From: Escherichia phage ime | DNA: 64,000 nt | Direction: 5' to 3' (one strand) | Sequence record: MN850576.1 | In this document: positions 12,515 to 17,973 of the stretch, piece after piece | How the letters are laid out: the number at the start of each line of letters is the position of its first letter | Position numbering within the stretch: position 1 is the stretch's first letter | Position numbers and translations under genes: made by a program | The notes under the pieces: model-generated | Told to the model about the DNA's origin: nothing | The model's database searches: none | The model's input: the letters and a program-made list of their open reading frames with translations, nothing else

Positions 12515-12775
12515 TCAGTCCACCTCTTCTTCTCGTTGTAGTTCAAGATACCCGTAGGTCTGGACATCTTGAAGGGTGTGGAACTCCCCCCCCTCTGCCG
12601 CTAAGGCACGAACAACTTGGCACAAAACCTTATGAGGAACTTCATCCAAACCTAGATTCAGTGCAGGAAACACCTTATCTAAGTCAACAAAATAAACGAA
12701 CTGTAGCTCACCAGCTTCAAAAGGTGTATCTTCAATAAACATCTTCTCGGCATTAGTCAAGATCTGCACTTTCAT
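12515..12775 (-). CDS. Hypothetical protein
   Basis: 86-aa ORF in a same-strand array. Confidence 0.45.
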   Translation of the reverse strand: MKVQILTNAEKMFIEDTPFEAGELQFVYFVDLDKVFPALNLGLDEVPHKVLCQVVRALAAEGGEFHTLQDVQTYGYLELQREEEVD

Positions 12776-13152
12776 TATTCTACCTCCTCTTCTTTTTCTT
12801 CGGCATTAGTTTCATGGCTACCCCACTCGGGAGTTTCCACCTCGATAGTAAACTCACGCACTACACGGTAATTGCCCATGAAGCGCTCTACTTCGTCAAG
12901 GCTTATGGAGAGGCCATTGGCAACCAGGTCTGCAGCACCCTCTTCTACCAGGTAGTCCAGATTGGCTTCCAGAGCCTCAGGTTCAAACCCTGTCAATGCA
13001 ATCAGATAACCTTCCCCTTCATCAGGGAGGACAATACAGCCCAATTGATTTTCTTTAAAAAGGCAGTGACCATCATTATTGATTGGGTGTTCATTGCAGT
13101 AAATAGCTGCACGATAAGTAACTTTAGACATCGGTAAGGTCTCCTTAGGCAA
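12775..13152 (-). CDS. Hypothetical protein (likely start 13131, MSKVTYRA...)
   Basis: In-frame ATG at 13131-13129 preceded by AAGGAG; this initiation region is part of a 29-nt inverted repeat shared with 14970-14998. Confidence 0.5.
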   Translation of the reverse strand: MPKETLPMSKVTYRAAIYCNEHPINNDGHCLFKENQLGCIVLPDEGEGYLIALTGFEPEALEANLDYLVEEGAADLVANGLSISLDEVERFMGNYRVVREFTIEVETPEWGSHETNAEEKEEEVE

Positions 13153-13423
13153 TTGTCGTTTTACATTCTTGAAATTTTAACACAAGACGGTGATTGTGTC
13201 TAGTGTCTAAAAAGATTTTTTCAACCATCAGGCACACGGTATAACCGTCAATCTTGTTGACAACAAAATCTCCAGGATGAGGGAGGATGTCTCCCGGATT
13301 GGGGAAACATAGTCCACTCAGAAAGGCATCGTCAGTGGTGGACTTAATAGATTTCCACACACTGTCTGCCTGAACATGTTCACCGACGTAATATACATTA
13401 CCACATGCCTTCATCATAGTCAA
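13145..13423 (-). CDS. Hypothetical protein
   Basis: 92-aa ORF in a same-strand array. Confidence 0.45.
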   Translation of the reverse strand: MTMMKACGNVYYVGEHVQADSVWKSIKSTTDDAFLSGLCFPNPGDILPHPGDFVVNKIDGYTVCLMVEKIFLDTRHNHRLVLKFQECKTTIA

Positions 13424-14319
13424 ACCCTCGCATAAATTAAACTTGTATCAGTATACTTCTTTAATGGGTAAATATCCTGTCCATAGATGCAATCATTAAA
13501 CACCTCATCTACCCAAAGGCTACACTTATATCCCATCATTTCTAAAACACCCATCTCTTCTTCGGTAAACTTATCACCGCTCTTGCAAGATGTCAATACC
13601 TCATTCTGAACTCTTGCTACCTCGAAGCGGTTATTGGCAATATCGCTATTGGCGATCAAATACTCACCTAGAGGGTGTGCGGCATTAAAGATGCACAGTG
13701 GACGGCTGACGTAATAGTCTCCAGGTGTATAAAAATTGTTGAGGTCTTTCACTAGAACATTCTTATCAGTCACTTCATTTATAACATCATGCATATCGCA
13801 CATCTTTATATGTTTGAGGATTCCATCCCCCATCACAAAATAAAAACTTGCTGAGACACTTTCGGCATAGATCTTACTAGATCCGTTGTAGTTGTATTTT
13901 ACTCGGATGCTAACGGGGGTTTTTCCTGTCGCGTTAGCCATCATCCAAAGAAATGGCAGCTCATACTTCTCCTCTGAGGAAACAAAAGGTGAGGTAGCCA
14001 GAGATCGAAAACCTCCAGAGAAGTTGAAAGTTACAGAACCGCTCCGGCGGTATGATACCGCGTATTCTACTTTTATATCGACATACCCATTGGAATAGGT
14101 GTGTCCTTCATTATCTAAATATGTCCACTTATCAGACCCAGATACCAATCTACGCTCAATAACCTTCATCACTATAGGAATTAATGGGTTGGTACAAACC
14201 GCTTTTGAAGTAGCTTTATCATCTAAAGCCTCGTAAATTGCAGAAAGGATGTCCCCAGCTGAAAGATTGGTTGTTATGTCCTGTTTCCACCGCGTACTAA
14301 AACTGTTAAGATTTGCCAT
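13420..14319 (-). CDS. Hypothetical protein
   Basis: 299-aa ORF, first gene of the minus-strand early block; promoter-like element upstream. Confidence 0.55.
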   Translation of the reverse strand: MANLNSFSTRWKQDITTNLSAGDILSAIYEALDDKATSKAVCTNPLIPIVMKVIERRLVSGSDKWTYLDNEGHTYSNGYVDIKVEYAVSYRRSGSVTFNFSGGFRSLATSPFVSSEEKYELPFLWMMANATGKTPVSIRVKYNYNGSSKIYAESVSASFYFVMGDGILKHIKMCDMHDVINEVTDKNVLVKDLNNFYTPGDYYVSRPLCIFNAAHPLGEYLIANSDIANNRFEVARVQNEVLTSCKSGDKFTEEEMGVLEMMGYKCSLWVDEVFNDCIYGQDIYPLKKYTDTSLIYARV

Positions 14320-14359: not shown

Positions 14360-14388
14360 ACTATATTGTGGAGTTAGAGTAAAGTCAA
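14360..14388 (-). promoter_or_regulatory. Sigma70-like promoter (TTGACT-N17-TATAGT) for the minus-strand early block
   Basis: Plus-strand agtcaa at 14383-14388 and actata at 14360-14365 (reverse complement TTGACT / TATAGT) with 17-nt spacer, in the divergent intergenic region. Confidence 0.5.
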
Positions 14389-14395
14389 CACGTTT

Positions 14396-15439
14396 TTGAT
14401 GTTGACATCTGTTGAGACAATTGATACGATTTCTTCACTTACAGAGCACGAGAGACGACTCATGAATCTTGAAAAATATTATACACCAGAAGAGTTAGAG
14501 CGCTTGCTCAAAAAATATAGACGCAAACAGAATAACGCACGGAAACGAGATATAGAGTTCGACCTGTCATGGGAAGAATACCTCCTATTTGGTAAAAAAC
14601 TTTTAGGAGATGGAGTATGCGACTATACCCTTATACCTTTTGACATGCACACAGATGAAAACGGGCTGGGGAATCCTTTCTACCCATCTCTGGAGCGGAT
14701 AGATGATGAAGGTCCTTATGCGGTTGATAACTGTTGTGTGGTGGGATTGAGATGCAACTCTCTAAAGGACTGTCTGGTAGATAAAAAGACTGCAGTCTTG
14801 ATTAAAGACGAAACTGATCGAAAAATTGTCCAGCAGATGATGCTCCACCTGAGCGAAGAGCGTATGGAGAAATTGAAAGGTGATTATACTTTTGAAGATT
14901 TCATCTTGCAATATGGAACGGAAGAGGATAAACTAGCACTCTTTGACGAAGAAGAGGAGGAAGATATGCTACCGATGTCTAAAGTTACTTATCGTGCACC
15001 CAAGAAGCACATTTCCGACATTGTAAACGAGCCTATCACAGAAGAGATTGAAGAAATGACGCAACAGGTGCATGAAGAGGAAAAAGAGACTCAGGAGGTC
15101 GAAGAGGAGCTTACAGAAGAGGTTCCTGCACTACCTGATGATGTTGAGATTGCCAAAGCTTACACTTTCTATTGTCAAACGTTCTACGATGTAGGTATGA
15201 AAGTTGATCTGTCGTTCAGCCAATTTAAGAGTTCGTATATTCGCAAATGCTGTGCTTTAACTGGTGAACGTCTTGGAGCTGGACTTAAACCCCTGTTGGT
15301 GACCGACTGGAATAAAGGTTTCACTAAAGGAAACTTTATGGTAGTATCTCCAATTATGGAGAAAGCTATGACAGATCTTATGAAGACCACCCGCATGACA
15401 ATGACCGAGTTGGCAGGTATTTTCAAACACGTTAAATAA
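14396..15439 (+). CDS. Composite ORF: HNH-like N-terminal region, acidic linker, C-terminal domain with internal SD+ATG
   Basis: MHTDENGLGN...SLERIDDEGPYAVDNCCVV resembles an HNH (His-Me finger) motif; EEEEED linker; in-frame internal ATG at 14975 preceded by GAGGAGG. Called ATG 14396 overlaps a TTGACA hexamer, so the true start is uncertain (alternative ATG 14462). Confidence 0.45.
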   Translation: MMLTSVETIDTISSLTEHERRLMNLEKYYTPEELERLLKKYRRKQNNARKRDIEFDLSWEEYLLFGKKLLGDGVCDYTLIPFDMHTDENGLGNPFYPSLERIDDEGPYAVDNCCVVGLRCNSLKDCLVDKKTAVLIKDETDRKIVQQMMLHLSEERMEKLKGDYTFEDFILQYGTEEDKLALFDEEEEEDMLPMSKVTYRAPKKHISDIVNEPITEEIEEMTQQVHEEEKETQEVEEELTEEVPALPDDVEIAKAYTFYCQTFYDVGMKVDLSFSQFKSSYIRKCCALTGERLGAGLKPLLVTDWNKGFTKGNFMVVSPIMEKAMTDLMKTTRMTMTELAGIFKHVK

Positions 15440-15451
15440 TGACAGGGGCCA

Positions 15452-16933
15452 ATGGCCCCTTCTGGAGTTTTAATGGATAGTAGAAGTTCAGAAATCATTG
15501 CCTCGCAGAAAGATGATGCCCTGAGAATGTTGCAGGCTGCACGTATGTATCTCCTTGAAAAGCTGCCGTTTTATGGCACACTACTGTCAGGGTTGCAGTT
15601 CGTAGAAAACCACACATGGTGCTCCACCATGGCAACCGACCATAAACGCATCTATTACAGTCCTGAGTTCATTATGGGATTGGCTGATGAACGCAAGGCT
15701 ATTCTTAAGGCTTCTCTAACTGACGAGCAGTTTGAGATGGCTGAAGTTTTCTATTCCCCAAAATCTGTGAAAGAGGTGGCCTTCCTTCTGTCACATGAGG
15801 TGGGGCATATTATCTGTGATCACCTAGTCCGTGGTAAAAGCTTTGAGCCGGAACTGTTCAATATTGCTTGTGATCACGTTATCAACACAGGCCTTGTGGT
15901 TGACTTTAGCAAACCTCCTTGTGTTTTCTTCCCGAAGGGGAAAAGCACTACGTTCATGAAAGGTAAGCCTTTTGGCTTCTTAGCCAGCTGCTACTGCGAC
16001 ATGAAGTTTCATGGATGGATTGCTGAGAACGTTTATGCAGTTCTTGATAAGCAAAGAGATCAGAATAACGGTAAAAGTAAGAACGGTAAAGGTGAGAACT
16101 CTCAAAGTGATAAGCGACAAACCGATGATCACATGAGTGGGAACGGTGGCACCAGTGATAATCTTGGAAAGGCTATGAGGTATGATCAGCCACAACCTGT
16201 AATCAGCCAATCTGATAAAGATCAGGCCATGCAGGACTCTGGTGATATGCTGGAGGCAGCAATGCAAGCGTCCGGAGGCCGTTGCCCTGAGGCGGTGCGT
16301 GAGTTTGTCAAGAACAGAGGTAAGCCTGTAATCAACTATATAGACATCATTAAGCAACGTATGTTGTCTAAAAGAAAGGCCGAACTGACCTACAGAAAAC
16401 CTGGTCGCCGATCTGGGTCTTTGACCAGCACAATGCGAAAAGTTGGGGCTATAAACAAGAACCAGCACGTTATTGTTCCTGGTCGTAATCCGGAAAACAC
16501 TATAGATATTGTGGTGGCTTTAGACGTTTCTGGCTCGATCTCTCAAAGAACTTTAAAGAAAATGTTCAATGAAATCACCGGATTGTGCAATCTGTATAAA
16601 GAGTTTAAGGTTACAATGTTCTGTTGGTCAACTGAGGTTGGAGAGGTTAAAGTATACACTCGCGGCAACATAGACGAGATGGTCAACTATGAGGTCCACT
16701 CAACATGGGGCACAACAGCTGCTTGCGTGTTCGAGTATCTGGATGCCAACATACCTAATGCAAAAGATGTCATCGTCCTGACCGACCTATACTTTGAGCA
16801 TAACTTTGAACAAAAGGTTGTTGACAACAAGTGGAAAAAGTACGATACTCTATGGGTCCTCACTGAGGGGTATAATAAAAATTATATCCCGAGCTTTGGG
16901 AAAACTGTGGAATTAATCGAGTACGCTAAGTAA
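15452..16933 (+). CDS. vWA-domain protein with N-terminal HExxH metallopeptidase-like region
   Basis: HExxH motif LSHEVGHIICDH; MIDAS motif VVALDVSGSIS (DxSxS); 493 aa. Confidence 0.7.
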   Translation: MAPSGVLMDSRSSEIIASQKDDALRMLQAARMYLLEKLPFYGTLLSGLQFVENHTWCSTMATDHKRIYYSPEFIMGLADERKAILKASLTDEQFEMAEVFYSPKSVKEVAFLLSHEVGHIICDHLVRGKSFEPELFNIACDHVINTGLVVDFSKPPCVFFPKGKSTTFMKGKPFGFLASCYCDMKFHGWIAENVYAVLDKQRDQNNGKSKNGKGENSQSDKRQTDDHMSGNGGTSDNLGKAMRYDQPQPVISQSDKDQAMQDSGDMLEAAMQASGGRCPEAVREFVKNRGKPVINYIDIIKQRMLSKRKAELTYRKPGRRSGSLTSTMRKVGAINKNQHVIVPGRNPENTIDIVVALDVSGSISQRTLKKMFNEITGLCNLYKEFKVTMFCWSTEVGEVKVYTRGNIDEMVNYEVHSTWGTTAACVFEYLDANIPNAKDVIVLTDLYFEHNFEQKVVDNKWKKYDTLWVLTEGYNKNYIPSFGKTVELIEYAK

Positions 16934-16948
16934 GAGAGGAGGTTATTT

Positions 16949-17212
16949 ATGGCAACAGAGTTAAAATTTGCATCAAACCGTAAAACTAAGAAGTATCTGT
17001 CCTCAGTAGCTCCAGGCACTGTGGTGATGTTTGTTGATGAACTTGGGGATGTGAATACAGCACTTGTTGTAAAATCACATCCTGCAAACATATATGTTGG
17101 GGTATTTGACCTGTTCAGAAAGGTGTTTGTAGAACTGCCTCACAGTTTGGTTGTTACAGAAATGGATGCCTGCATAGAAATTCTTGGCGAAGTTATGGTG
17201 GAGGAACAATAA
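16949..17212 (+). CDS. Small paralog family protein, copy 1 (87 aa)
   Basis: Strong SD GAGAGGAGG; shares MAT...GTVV...VVK...FDL...LP...VTE-D...ILGE pattern with copies 2-4. Confidence 0.65.
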   Translation: MATELKFASNRKTKKYLSSVAPGTVVMFVDELGDVNTALVVKSHPANIYVGVFDLFRKVFVELPHSLVVTEMDACIEILGEVMVEEQ

Positions 17213-17475
17213 TGGCTACCAGCATTGTATTCAATTCTAAGGTGAAGAACAAAAAGCGTGCAGACAGTTTTCCGTGTGGGACCGTGGTAAGTTGCGACGG
17301 AGACGGCATTCAAAACATAGTTATGATTGTCAAAACAGGAGAACATTGTGTGTGGGGGTTCGATTTAGAAAATAATGAGTTGTACGATCTGCCGCCAAAC
17401 ATGAAAGTTACAGAGCTTGACACCAAAATTACCATCCTTGGAGAGACAAGCTATTCAAAAGAAGGAGGAGAATAA
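17212..17475 (+). CDS. Small paralog family protein, copy 2 (87 aa)
   Basis: Start overlaps copy-1 stop (TAATG); SD GGAGGA; clear alignment with copy 1. Confidence 0.65.
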   Translation: MATSIVFNSKVKNKKRADSFPCGTVVSCDGDGIQNIVMIVKTGEHCVWGFDLENNELYDLPPNMKVTELDTKITILGETSYSKEGGE

Positions 17476-17738
17476 TGACCACAAAAATCACTATCGCAGA
17501 ACCGAAAGCTAACACTCAGCCTATCGAAAAGTTTAAGTGCGGTGAGGTGGTAACATTCACACCAGATAATGAAGATGCTAAGATTTTCGCAATGGTCACA
17601 GCTGAGTGGATGTGTGACAACACCACACAGGTTCTGCGTTTTGACACCTATCTTACCGATGAAATCAGGAACGACAAGATTGTGACTGGTGTGGATACTG
17701 AGATTGTTTTCTACAAGAGCTTTTTAGAGGGTTTCTGA
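17475..17738 (+). CDS. Small paralog family protein, copy 3 (87 aa)
   Basis: Start overlaps copy-2 stop (TAATG); SD AAGGAGGAG; diverged but same pattern (CGEVV, DTEIV). Confidence 0.6.
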   Translation: MTTKITIAEPKANTQPIEKFKCGEVVTFTPDNEDAKIFAMVTAEWMCDNTTQVLRFDTYLTDEIRNDKIVTGVDTEIVFYKSFLEGF

Positions 17739-17739
17739 T

Positions 17740-17973
17740 ATGGCAAAAATTAGAAAATTATCTAGCAATCAGGTTGTGAAAGACTTCGAATCTGGAGAGA
17801 TTCTTTATGTTCGTGATGCAGATGACGAAGGTGAAGATCTCGTTATGTTGGTGGGGCACGCTGAGGACGGATGCATCCAAGCTGTTTTTCTTGAAACAGC
17901 TATGGTGCACTGGATAGAGCTGGACCTGAAAGCACGAAAACCTAAAGCAGAAATCCTGATTTACGAAGATTAA
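17740..17973 (+). CDS. Small paralog family protein, copy 4 (77 aa)
   Basis: Directly follows copy 3; weaker similarity (SGEILYV, VMLVGH). Confidence 0.5.
   Translation: MAKIRKLSSNQVVKDFESGEILYVRDADDEGEDLVMLVGHAEDGCIQAVFLETAMVHWIELDLKARKPKAEILIYED

Follow-up and report, generated by a model that had tools for sequence, protein, structure and literature searches.

The open reading frame (ORF) at 14396-15439 on the plus strand of Escherichia phage ime (MN850576.1; the window analyzed is a stretch of 64,000 nucleotides (nt), and all coordinates refer to it) contains what is probably a core early gene of Vequintavirus. On this reading its product is one polypeptide in which a PacI-type N domain is followed by an acidic linker and a degenerate duplicate of the same domain, and its role is an early one directed at nucleic acid. 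More than 200 phage genomes contain the gene, and its four labels there ("anti-sigma factor", "HNH endonuclease", "anti-termination protein" and "hypothetical protein") disagree with one another; the PacI-type tandem assignment provides one defensible annotation. Databases already contain the gene as well as its family, which PHROGs already labels HNH. We rate it an ordinary gene with a modestly interesting and testable functional hypothesis. What is new here is the PacI-type assignment, the internal duplication, the link between the N domain and T4 Srd, the resolved start codon, and the origin of an apparent second start within the linker. Residues are numbered from Met 14462, and the coding sequence is divided as follows:

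14462-15439, plus strand: most likely coding sequence, of 325 amino acids (aa) and a stop codon, beginning MNLEKYY; this is the annotated start in near-identical phages and agrees with distant homologues and the PHROG alignment
14462-14962, plus strand: N domain, residues 1-167, with a basic N-terminal helix, a ββα core and a helical extension; PacI-like, lacking the catalytic His
14693-14767, plus strand: residues equivalent to the PacI active site, from alignments with PacI: E78 (14693), R79 (14696), Y86 (14717), N90 (14729), N99 (14756) and K102 (14765)
14963-15124, plus strand: acidic disordered linker, residues 168-221, with 17 Asp and Glu versus 5 Lys and Arg; predicted local distance difference test score (pLDDT) below 65 in the model
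15125-15436, plus strand: C domain, residues 222-325, a diverged duplicate of the N domain by profile comparison; basic, with an isoelectric point (pI) of 9.1 and pLDDT above 90

The protein was modeled with AlphaFold2. A run with a 7-sequence alignment was unusable (pLDDT 46), and the run with 98 relatives, which gave a mean pLDDT of 88.8 and confident N (1-167) and C (222-325) domains, was used throughout. These 98 diverse relatives (alignment A2, mean column identity 20%) also provide the residue counts given below. The ββα core of the N domain is formed by strand 75-79, a loop carrying Y86, strand 91-95 and helix 96-107. Foldseek finds HNH nucleases in all of its top nine positions, and HNH enzymes dominate a list that includes PacI, the HNH domain of Cas9, Gme, McrA, Cap5, colicin E7 and T4 endonuclease VII. 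The nearest viral models are HNH proteins of giant viruses and 'anti-sigma factors' of the Srd-like kind; PacI itself is placed with giant-virus proteins in group 20 of the His-Me finger classification (PMC5714182). At the level of sequence, the A2 profile retrieves PacI as its sole match among PDB sequences (E = 0.01), a shallower profile retrieves nothing but a spurious thioredoxin-like match, and hhalign aligns the domain with the corresponding segment of PacI at 91.8% (E = 7e-7).

PacI is described (PMC5714182, PMC4081073) as a His-Me finger that lacks the catalytic His, with a Tyr from the inter-strand loop as its substitute and with one Asp and one Asn holding the metal. The catalytic residues named in PMC13139853 are R93, Y100 and H42. 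The alignments pair E78 of the phage protein with D92 of PacI, R79 with R93, Y86 with Y100, N90 with N104, N99 with N113 and K102 with K116, and these positions are occupied in the 98 relatives as follows:

Position 78: E in 86, D in 12
Position 79: R in all 98
Position 86: Y in all 98
Position 90: N in all 98
Position 99: N in 94, H in 4
Position 102: K in 96

The alternation between N and H is typical of the last metal ligand of HNH enzymes. Three features of the His-less PacI-like group are found in the N domain, namely the ββα-metal core, an Arg in place of the His together with a Tyr in the omega loop, and an acidic residue and an Asn at the ligand positions. The N domain is a PacI-type His-less ββα-metal fold with a strictly conserved constellation of Arg, Tyr and metal ligands.

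A resemblance of the N-terminal part to the His-Me finger of HNH homing endonucleases had been proposed in a preliminary description of this DNA, which quoted the peptides MHTDENGLGN..., SLERIDDEGPYAVDNCCVV and EEEEED. All three are present in the ORF, and the fold is borne out by the matches to phrog_3118 and PacI. The His of 'MHTDEN', however, belongs to an insertion that 75 of the 98 relatives lack and is therefore not a catalytic His.

The phage protein and PacI (PDB 3LDY/3M7K) also differ in several respects. PacI is a bacterial restriction enzyme that functions as a homodimer of 142-aa chains, whereas the phage protein is the product of an early gene and, within one chain, also has an acidic linker, a helical extension and a second, degenerate domain copy. 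It lacks both Cys4 zinc sites of PacI as well as an equivalent of His42. Compared with His-Me fingers that are considered dead, such as the Smad MH1 domain and the C-terminal domain of yeast Tcd (PDB 9HMO/9HMP), the N domain still has the Tyr and the two metal-ligand positions, all of which are missing from Tcd.

A number of observations weigh against the proposed assignment and role. The Foldseek E-values are only about 0.05, the PacI match in the PDB sequence search is marginal, and no Pfam, NCBIfam or PADLOC profile matches the protein or its halves. Of the cysteines of the two PacI zinc sites, C53 (equivalent to PacI C63) alone is conserved among the 98 relatives; C66, C109 and C112 of PacI are replaced by T56, G95 and the variable position 98, which is a Cys in 10 of the 98. 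PacI His42 aligns to a hydrophobic residue, I31 (I, L or V in 94 of 98), in a helix whose alignment is uncertain. The N domain is acidic overall (pI 4.6), and the relative orientation of the two domains in the model is not confident (predicted template modeling score 0.58). Finally, the only characterized homologue, T4 Srd, is reported (PMC13232886) to act by binding RNase E and not as a nuclease.

The C domain arose by tandem duplication of the N fold and has lost the active site residues. The relationship is visible only by comparison of profiles, as BLASTP between the two halves is not significant (E = 1.5). Profiles built from 115 copies of each domain align by hhalign over 87 columns at 97.5% (E = 6e-12), and the alignment agrees motif by motif: DLS(W/F), C..TG and D...G(Y/F)..GN..VV. 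Likewise, the C-domain hidden Markov model (HMM) cross-matches N-type domains in four relatives (P0048, P0070, P0098 and P0125), and the PHROG Srd profiles 4592 and 1400 match both halves. The positions equivalent to E78, R79, Y86, N99 and K102 are hydrophobic or variable in the C domain, which is a catalytically degenerate duplicate of the N domain.

The difference between the two copies is informative with regards to function. The C domain keeps the fold while these positions vary, so the corresponding residues of the N domain are presumably constrained by chemistry or phosphate binding and not by folding. Chemistry at the site is favored because the residues are strict in the N domain and relaxed at the same positions in the C domain. 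In the N domain, the invariant R79 takes the place of the canonical His, the invariant Y86 sits in the inter-strand loop, and E78 and N99 occupy the metal-ligand positions of PacI. In the proposed mechanism, which resembles that of PacI in using one metal and the assistance of the Tyr, the N domain would bind and probably cleave phosphodiester bonds of nucleic acid, whereas the dead and basic C domain may serve as a non-catalytic binding module or as a partner in a pseudo-dimer. The target of the protein, early in infection, would be host nucleic acid or the machinery of RNA decay and transcription. Whether the N domain is an active nuclease is close to evenly balanced, leaning slightly toward the negative.

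T4 Srd, as the sole characterized relative, provides the main alternative. The N domain has a homologue in residues 7-92 of Srd (hhalign 98%, E = 2e-13), and the two share the motif SLER(I/F)D..GY..GN..N, which in Srd reads SLERFD..GY..GN..YN. Each belongs to the early genes of a large virulent coliphage. Srd goes by the names of 'anti-sigma factor', sigma-70 decoy and stimulator of RNase E, and the 'anti-sigma factor' label on the phage gene derives from the homology with Srd. According to PMC13232886, which cites Qi et al. 2015, Srd binds RNase E and speeds the decay of host mRNA. The phage protein could by analogy be a non-catalytic host-takeover factor, that is, a His-less ββα pseudo-nuclease that binds RNase E, RNA polymerase or sigma, or RNA, and in which the Arg, Tyr and Asn serve binding or folding. 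We regard this as possible but rather doubtful. The residues that are invariant in 98 very divergent relatives are exactly the metal-ligand, Arg and Tyr positions of PacI, down to the alternation between N and H, and the same positions vary in a C domain that retains the fold. In addition, only residues 7-92 of Srd can be aligned and its C-terminal half is not homologous to the C domain, so the function of the phage protein may differ from that of Srd; the acidic linker, too, has no counterpart in Srd.

Returning to the nuclease reading, the shared residue constellation means that the function of the N domain bears on how Srd speeds host mRNA decay. Tyr-dependent, His-less nuclease activity might extend to the Srd N domain and to the whole 'anti-sigma factor' family, with the N and C domains forming an intramolecular pseudo-dimer that nicks one strand of a host nucleic acid early in infection. 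We offer this only tentatively and think it unlikely as a whole. If true, the host mRNA decay stimulated by Srd would be a consequence of Srd's own nucleic-acid chemistry.

The protein family is broad and its architecture is uniform. Over its full length the protein matches phrog_3118, annotated 'HNH endonuclease' (E = 8e-113), and its N half also matches PHROG families labeled 'endonuclease' and 'endonuclease VII' as well as the two T4 Srd families, phrog_4592 (E = 3e-15) and phrog_1400 (E = 2.9e-10). By tblastn it is present in 210 phage records, 204 of which cover at least 80% of its length, with identities that range from 100% to about 23% in phages of Escherichia, Salmonella, Klebsiella, Cronobacter, Erwinia, Serratia and Aeromonas. 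When 1.84 billion representatives were searched exhaustively with a profile, 760 proteins scored at E<=1e-3. Among the best 150 of these, almost all have the N-then-C architecture in 225-350 aa, a few are N-N tandems, and a handful are apparently single-domain.

The 3.6 kb around the ORF match Escherichia phages pangalan and rV5_ev146 at 99.9% identity and Murica at 99.8%, which identifies the phage, judged by this region, as an rV5-like Vequintavirus; the ORF is the homologue of Murica gp011 and pangalan_204. The region is collinear in 116 of 118 matching records, all of them rV5-like Vequintavirus, and the gene order around the ORF is identical across the 7 species examined.

We next consider where translation begins. 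The ORF at 14396-15439 is confirmed, but its N terminus had been called uncertain on the grounds that an ATG at 14396 overlaps a TTGACA hexamer. The uncertainty was justified, though the details differ: the codon at 14396-14398 is TTG, the ATG lies at 14399-14401, and the hexamer (14402-14407) abuts this ATG directly on its 3' side without overlap. The hexamer belongs to one of two promoter-like sites upstream of the gene:

14402-14430, plus strand: sigma-70-type promoter-like site, TTGACA-17 nt-TACGAT, with an upstream TG (extended -10); 10 of 12 positions match
14360-14388, minus strand: predicted divergent promoter-like site for the leftward operon, TTGACT-17 nt-TATAGT, a mirror image of the rightward site

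The interval 14402-14430 is also predicted by PhagePromoter in the record of phage Gotham, and its -35 and -10 boxes are kept in six Vequintavirus species. Transcription from this site would begin near 14437, downstream of both the TTG at 14396 and the ATG at 14399, and the latter is not kept, being ATA in phita32 and AGG in FV3. Meanwhile, ATG 14462 is the start in all curated records, three distant homologues (P0015, P0019 and P0020) have their first residue at or very near Met-22 of the long ORF, which corresponds to 14462, and the PHROG alignment begins two residues past this Met. For these reasons, ATG 14462 is most likely the true start, giving a protein of 325 aa, and the gene would be expressed as a transcript from the site at 14402-14430 with translation from ATG 14462. 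The -35 boxes of the two back-to-back sites together form the palindrome GTCAAC-N11-GTTGAC (14384-14406), which is kept in the six species and could double as an operator.

The linker that joins the two domains contains what resembles a second start of translation. It is the acidic linker that the preliminary description had recognized. It is disordered in the model, with blocks of pLDDT between 47 and 64, and it is the most variable part of the protein among Vequintavirus species. Across the family, between 9 and 93 residues make up the inter-domain segment (query positions 150-224). The sequence GAGGAGG at 14954-14960 precedes ATG 14966-14968 with a spacing of 5 nt and ATG 14975-14977 with a spacing of 14 nt. 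The preliminary description, which had noted GAGGAGG with ATG 14975, suggested that the C-terminal domain is initiated internally and that a mobile HNH homing endonuclease was fused to, or inserted upstream of, an unrelated gene. Several features favor such an arrangement: the GAGGAGG and ATG codons themselves, a fold of HNH type in the N domain, a stretch around ATG 14975 (-5 to +24) that matches a genuine gene start exactly, and two metagenomic relatives that appear as N-only and C-only genes.

However, this scenario is largely refuted by the comparative data and is, in our estimation, very improbable. As with phage HNH homing endonucleases of the I-HmuI type (Pfam HNH_3 and AP2/NUMOD), the N domain has the ββα-metal core, but it carries an invariant Arg at the end of strand β1 where these enzymes have the catalytic His, and it has no AP2/NUMOD module. 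The HMM search that had been suggested as a check, with HNH_3 and AP2 profiles, gave no Pfam match even at E<=10: neither HNH, HNH_3 nor AP2 is found in the whole protein or in either half, there is no NUMOD match, and ten distant relatives likewise have no match in Pfam. Instead of a sporadic distribution, the locus occupies a fixed syntenic position in 116 of 118 Vequintavirus records, and its halves co-occur in 204 of 210 phage records. The downstream half is not an unrelated gene but a paralogue of the upstream half, and the two stand together in nearly all of the best 150 representatives. An internal start is no better conserved, with a Met corresponding to 14966 in 11 of 98 relatives and to 14975 in 3 of 98; P0015, P0016 and P0019 have a Met at neither position.

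The relatives that seemed to encode the two domains separately were also examined and rejected. One (P0038) is truncated at the end of its contig, and the other pair (P0039 and P0099) is a single gene that is frameshifted in a run of ten A, where deletion of one A brings the LKKKYIP motif of the family back into frame. This run lies at about 1346-1355 of the metagenomic phage contig L011, splitting the homologue into two called genes; it is probably an assembly or sequencing error, although slippage may also be involved.

The resemblance to a start can be accounted for by two elements. GAGGAGG consists of consecutive Glu codons, and the segment containing ATG 14975 is one copy of a perfect inverted repeat:

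14970-14998, plus strand: 29-nt patch, TACCG ATG TCT AAA GTT ACT TAT CGT GCA, which contains ATG 14975
13108-13136, minus strand: donor copy of the same 29 nt, comprising 5 nt upstream of the gp008 homologue and its first 8 codons (MSKVTYRA)

The gp008 homologue is the minus-strand gene at 12775-13131, and the two copies are 1.8 kb apart. The copied 29 nt exclude the Shine-Dalgarno sequence of the donor, a further point against a transplanted, functional start. The patch is confined to a Murica/FFH2-like clade (about 27 of 117 records, with both copies perfect in 22) and is absent from the roughly 90 other relatives. Among six species compared, the N terminus of gp008 varies in slur16, by a single residue (MSKATYRA), and is the same in the other five. 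At the site of the patch, the linker of JES2013 reads MSPMQDFKNFMADRAAN, with close variants in phita32, FV3, APECc02 and slur16. These unpatched species share with the donor only microhomologies, ACCGATG (in JES2013 only; the other four have ACCAATG) and ATCGTGCAGC (in JES2013, APECc02 and slur16), and it is by microhomologies of 7 nt and 10 nt that the patch is flanked. The simplest reading is that the patch represents a short tract of ectopic gene conversion from gp008 into the linker within the Murica/FFH2-like clade. The look of an internal start would then be an accident, produced by Glu codons that spell GAGGAGG and by a conversion patch that copied a gene start into the linker. As such, the patch would be a clean natural case of short ectopic gene conversion that mimics a translation start, and a caution for motif-based scans.

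Alternatively, the repeat could be a functional element, either an inversion site that exchanges the C domain for the body of gp008 or a translational operator shared by the two genes for one regulator. Perfect identity over 29 nt at a distance of 1.8 kb is far beyond chance, and the patch has been retained in the clade, in most cases with both copies perfect. Inversion between the copies would yield in-frame chimeras, in which the N domain is fused to gp008 and a stand-alone C domain is placed behind the ribosome-binding site of gp008. A query for the chimeric junction found the recombinant form in none of 118 genome records; exact-pattern scans of IMG/VR, which matched neither the chimeric nor the native junction, carry no weight here. 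The roughly 90 related genomes without the repeat keep both genes intact, so the repeat is dispensable, and it sits in the least constrained part of the protein, where a conversion tract flanked by microhomology explains it simply. A functional repeat therefore seems to us highly unlikely, and we retain the conversion tract as the origin of the pseudo-start.

A further feature lies between the stop codon of the ORF and the next gene:

15444-15460, no strand assigned: GC-rich hairpin, AGGGGCCAATGGCCCCT, annotated as a terminator in the Murica record

Its T-run on the plus strand is weak.

Several neighboring genes carry labels that are open to revision. The next gene (15473-16933) encodes a DUF2201_N metallopeptidase domain (Pfam, E = 3e-28) and a VWA-like DUF2201 domain (E = 2e-11), yet is labeled 'HNH endonuclease' in RefSeq records and 'putative anti-sigma factor' in pangalan; both labels look like annotation errors. 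A DUF2201_N/DUF2201 gene again lies 3' of the homologue in the metagenomic phage contigs L010 (32-2194) and L011 (956-3257), and is not found in this position in phage ON287369 (L013); given this mixed gene order, a functional link between the two genes was not adopted. The leftward operon contains genes for MoxR-type ATPases. On the minus strand at 13420-14319 is a gene called 'alpha 1-3 fucosyltransferase' in many records, for which no Pfam or NCBIfam match was found, and the name looks to have been propagated from the original rV5 annotation. Sixteen MG0656xx records named 'Campylobacter phage', with C. jejuni as host, match the ORF region; among the matches listed, identity to this region of E. 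coli Vequintavirus is 99.7% for C12 and 98.3% for C2. The likely cause is an incorrect host label or contamination of the samples. Further downstream, at about 16949-17740, the homologues of pangalan_200-202 are three consecutive genes of 264 nt each, two of which belong to one VOG, and they look like tandem paralogues.

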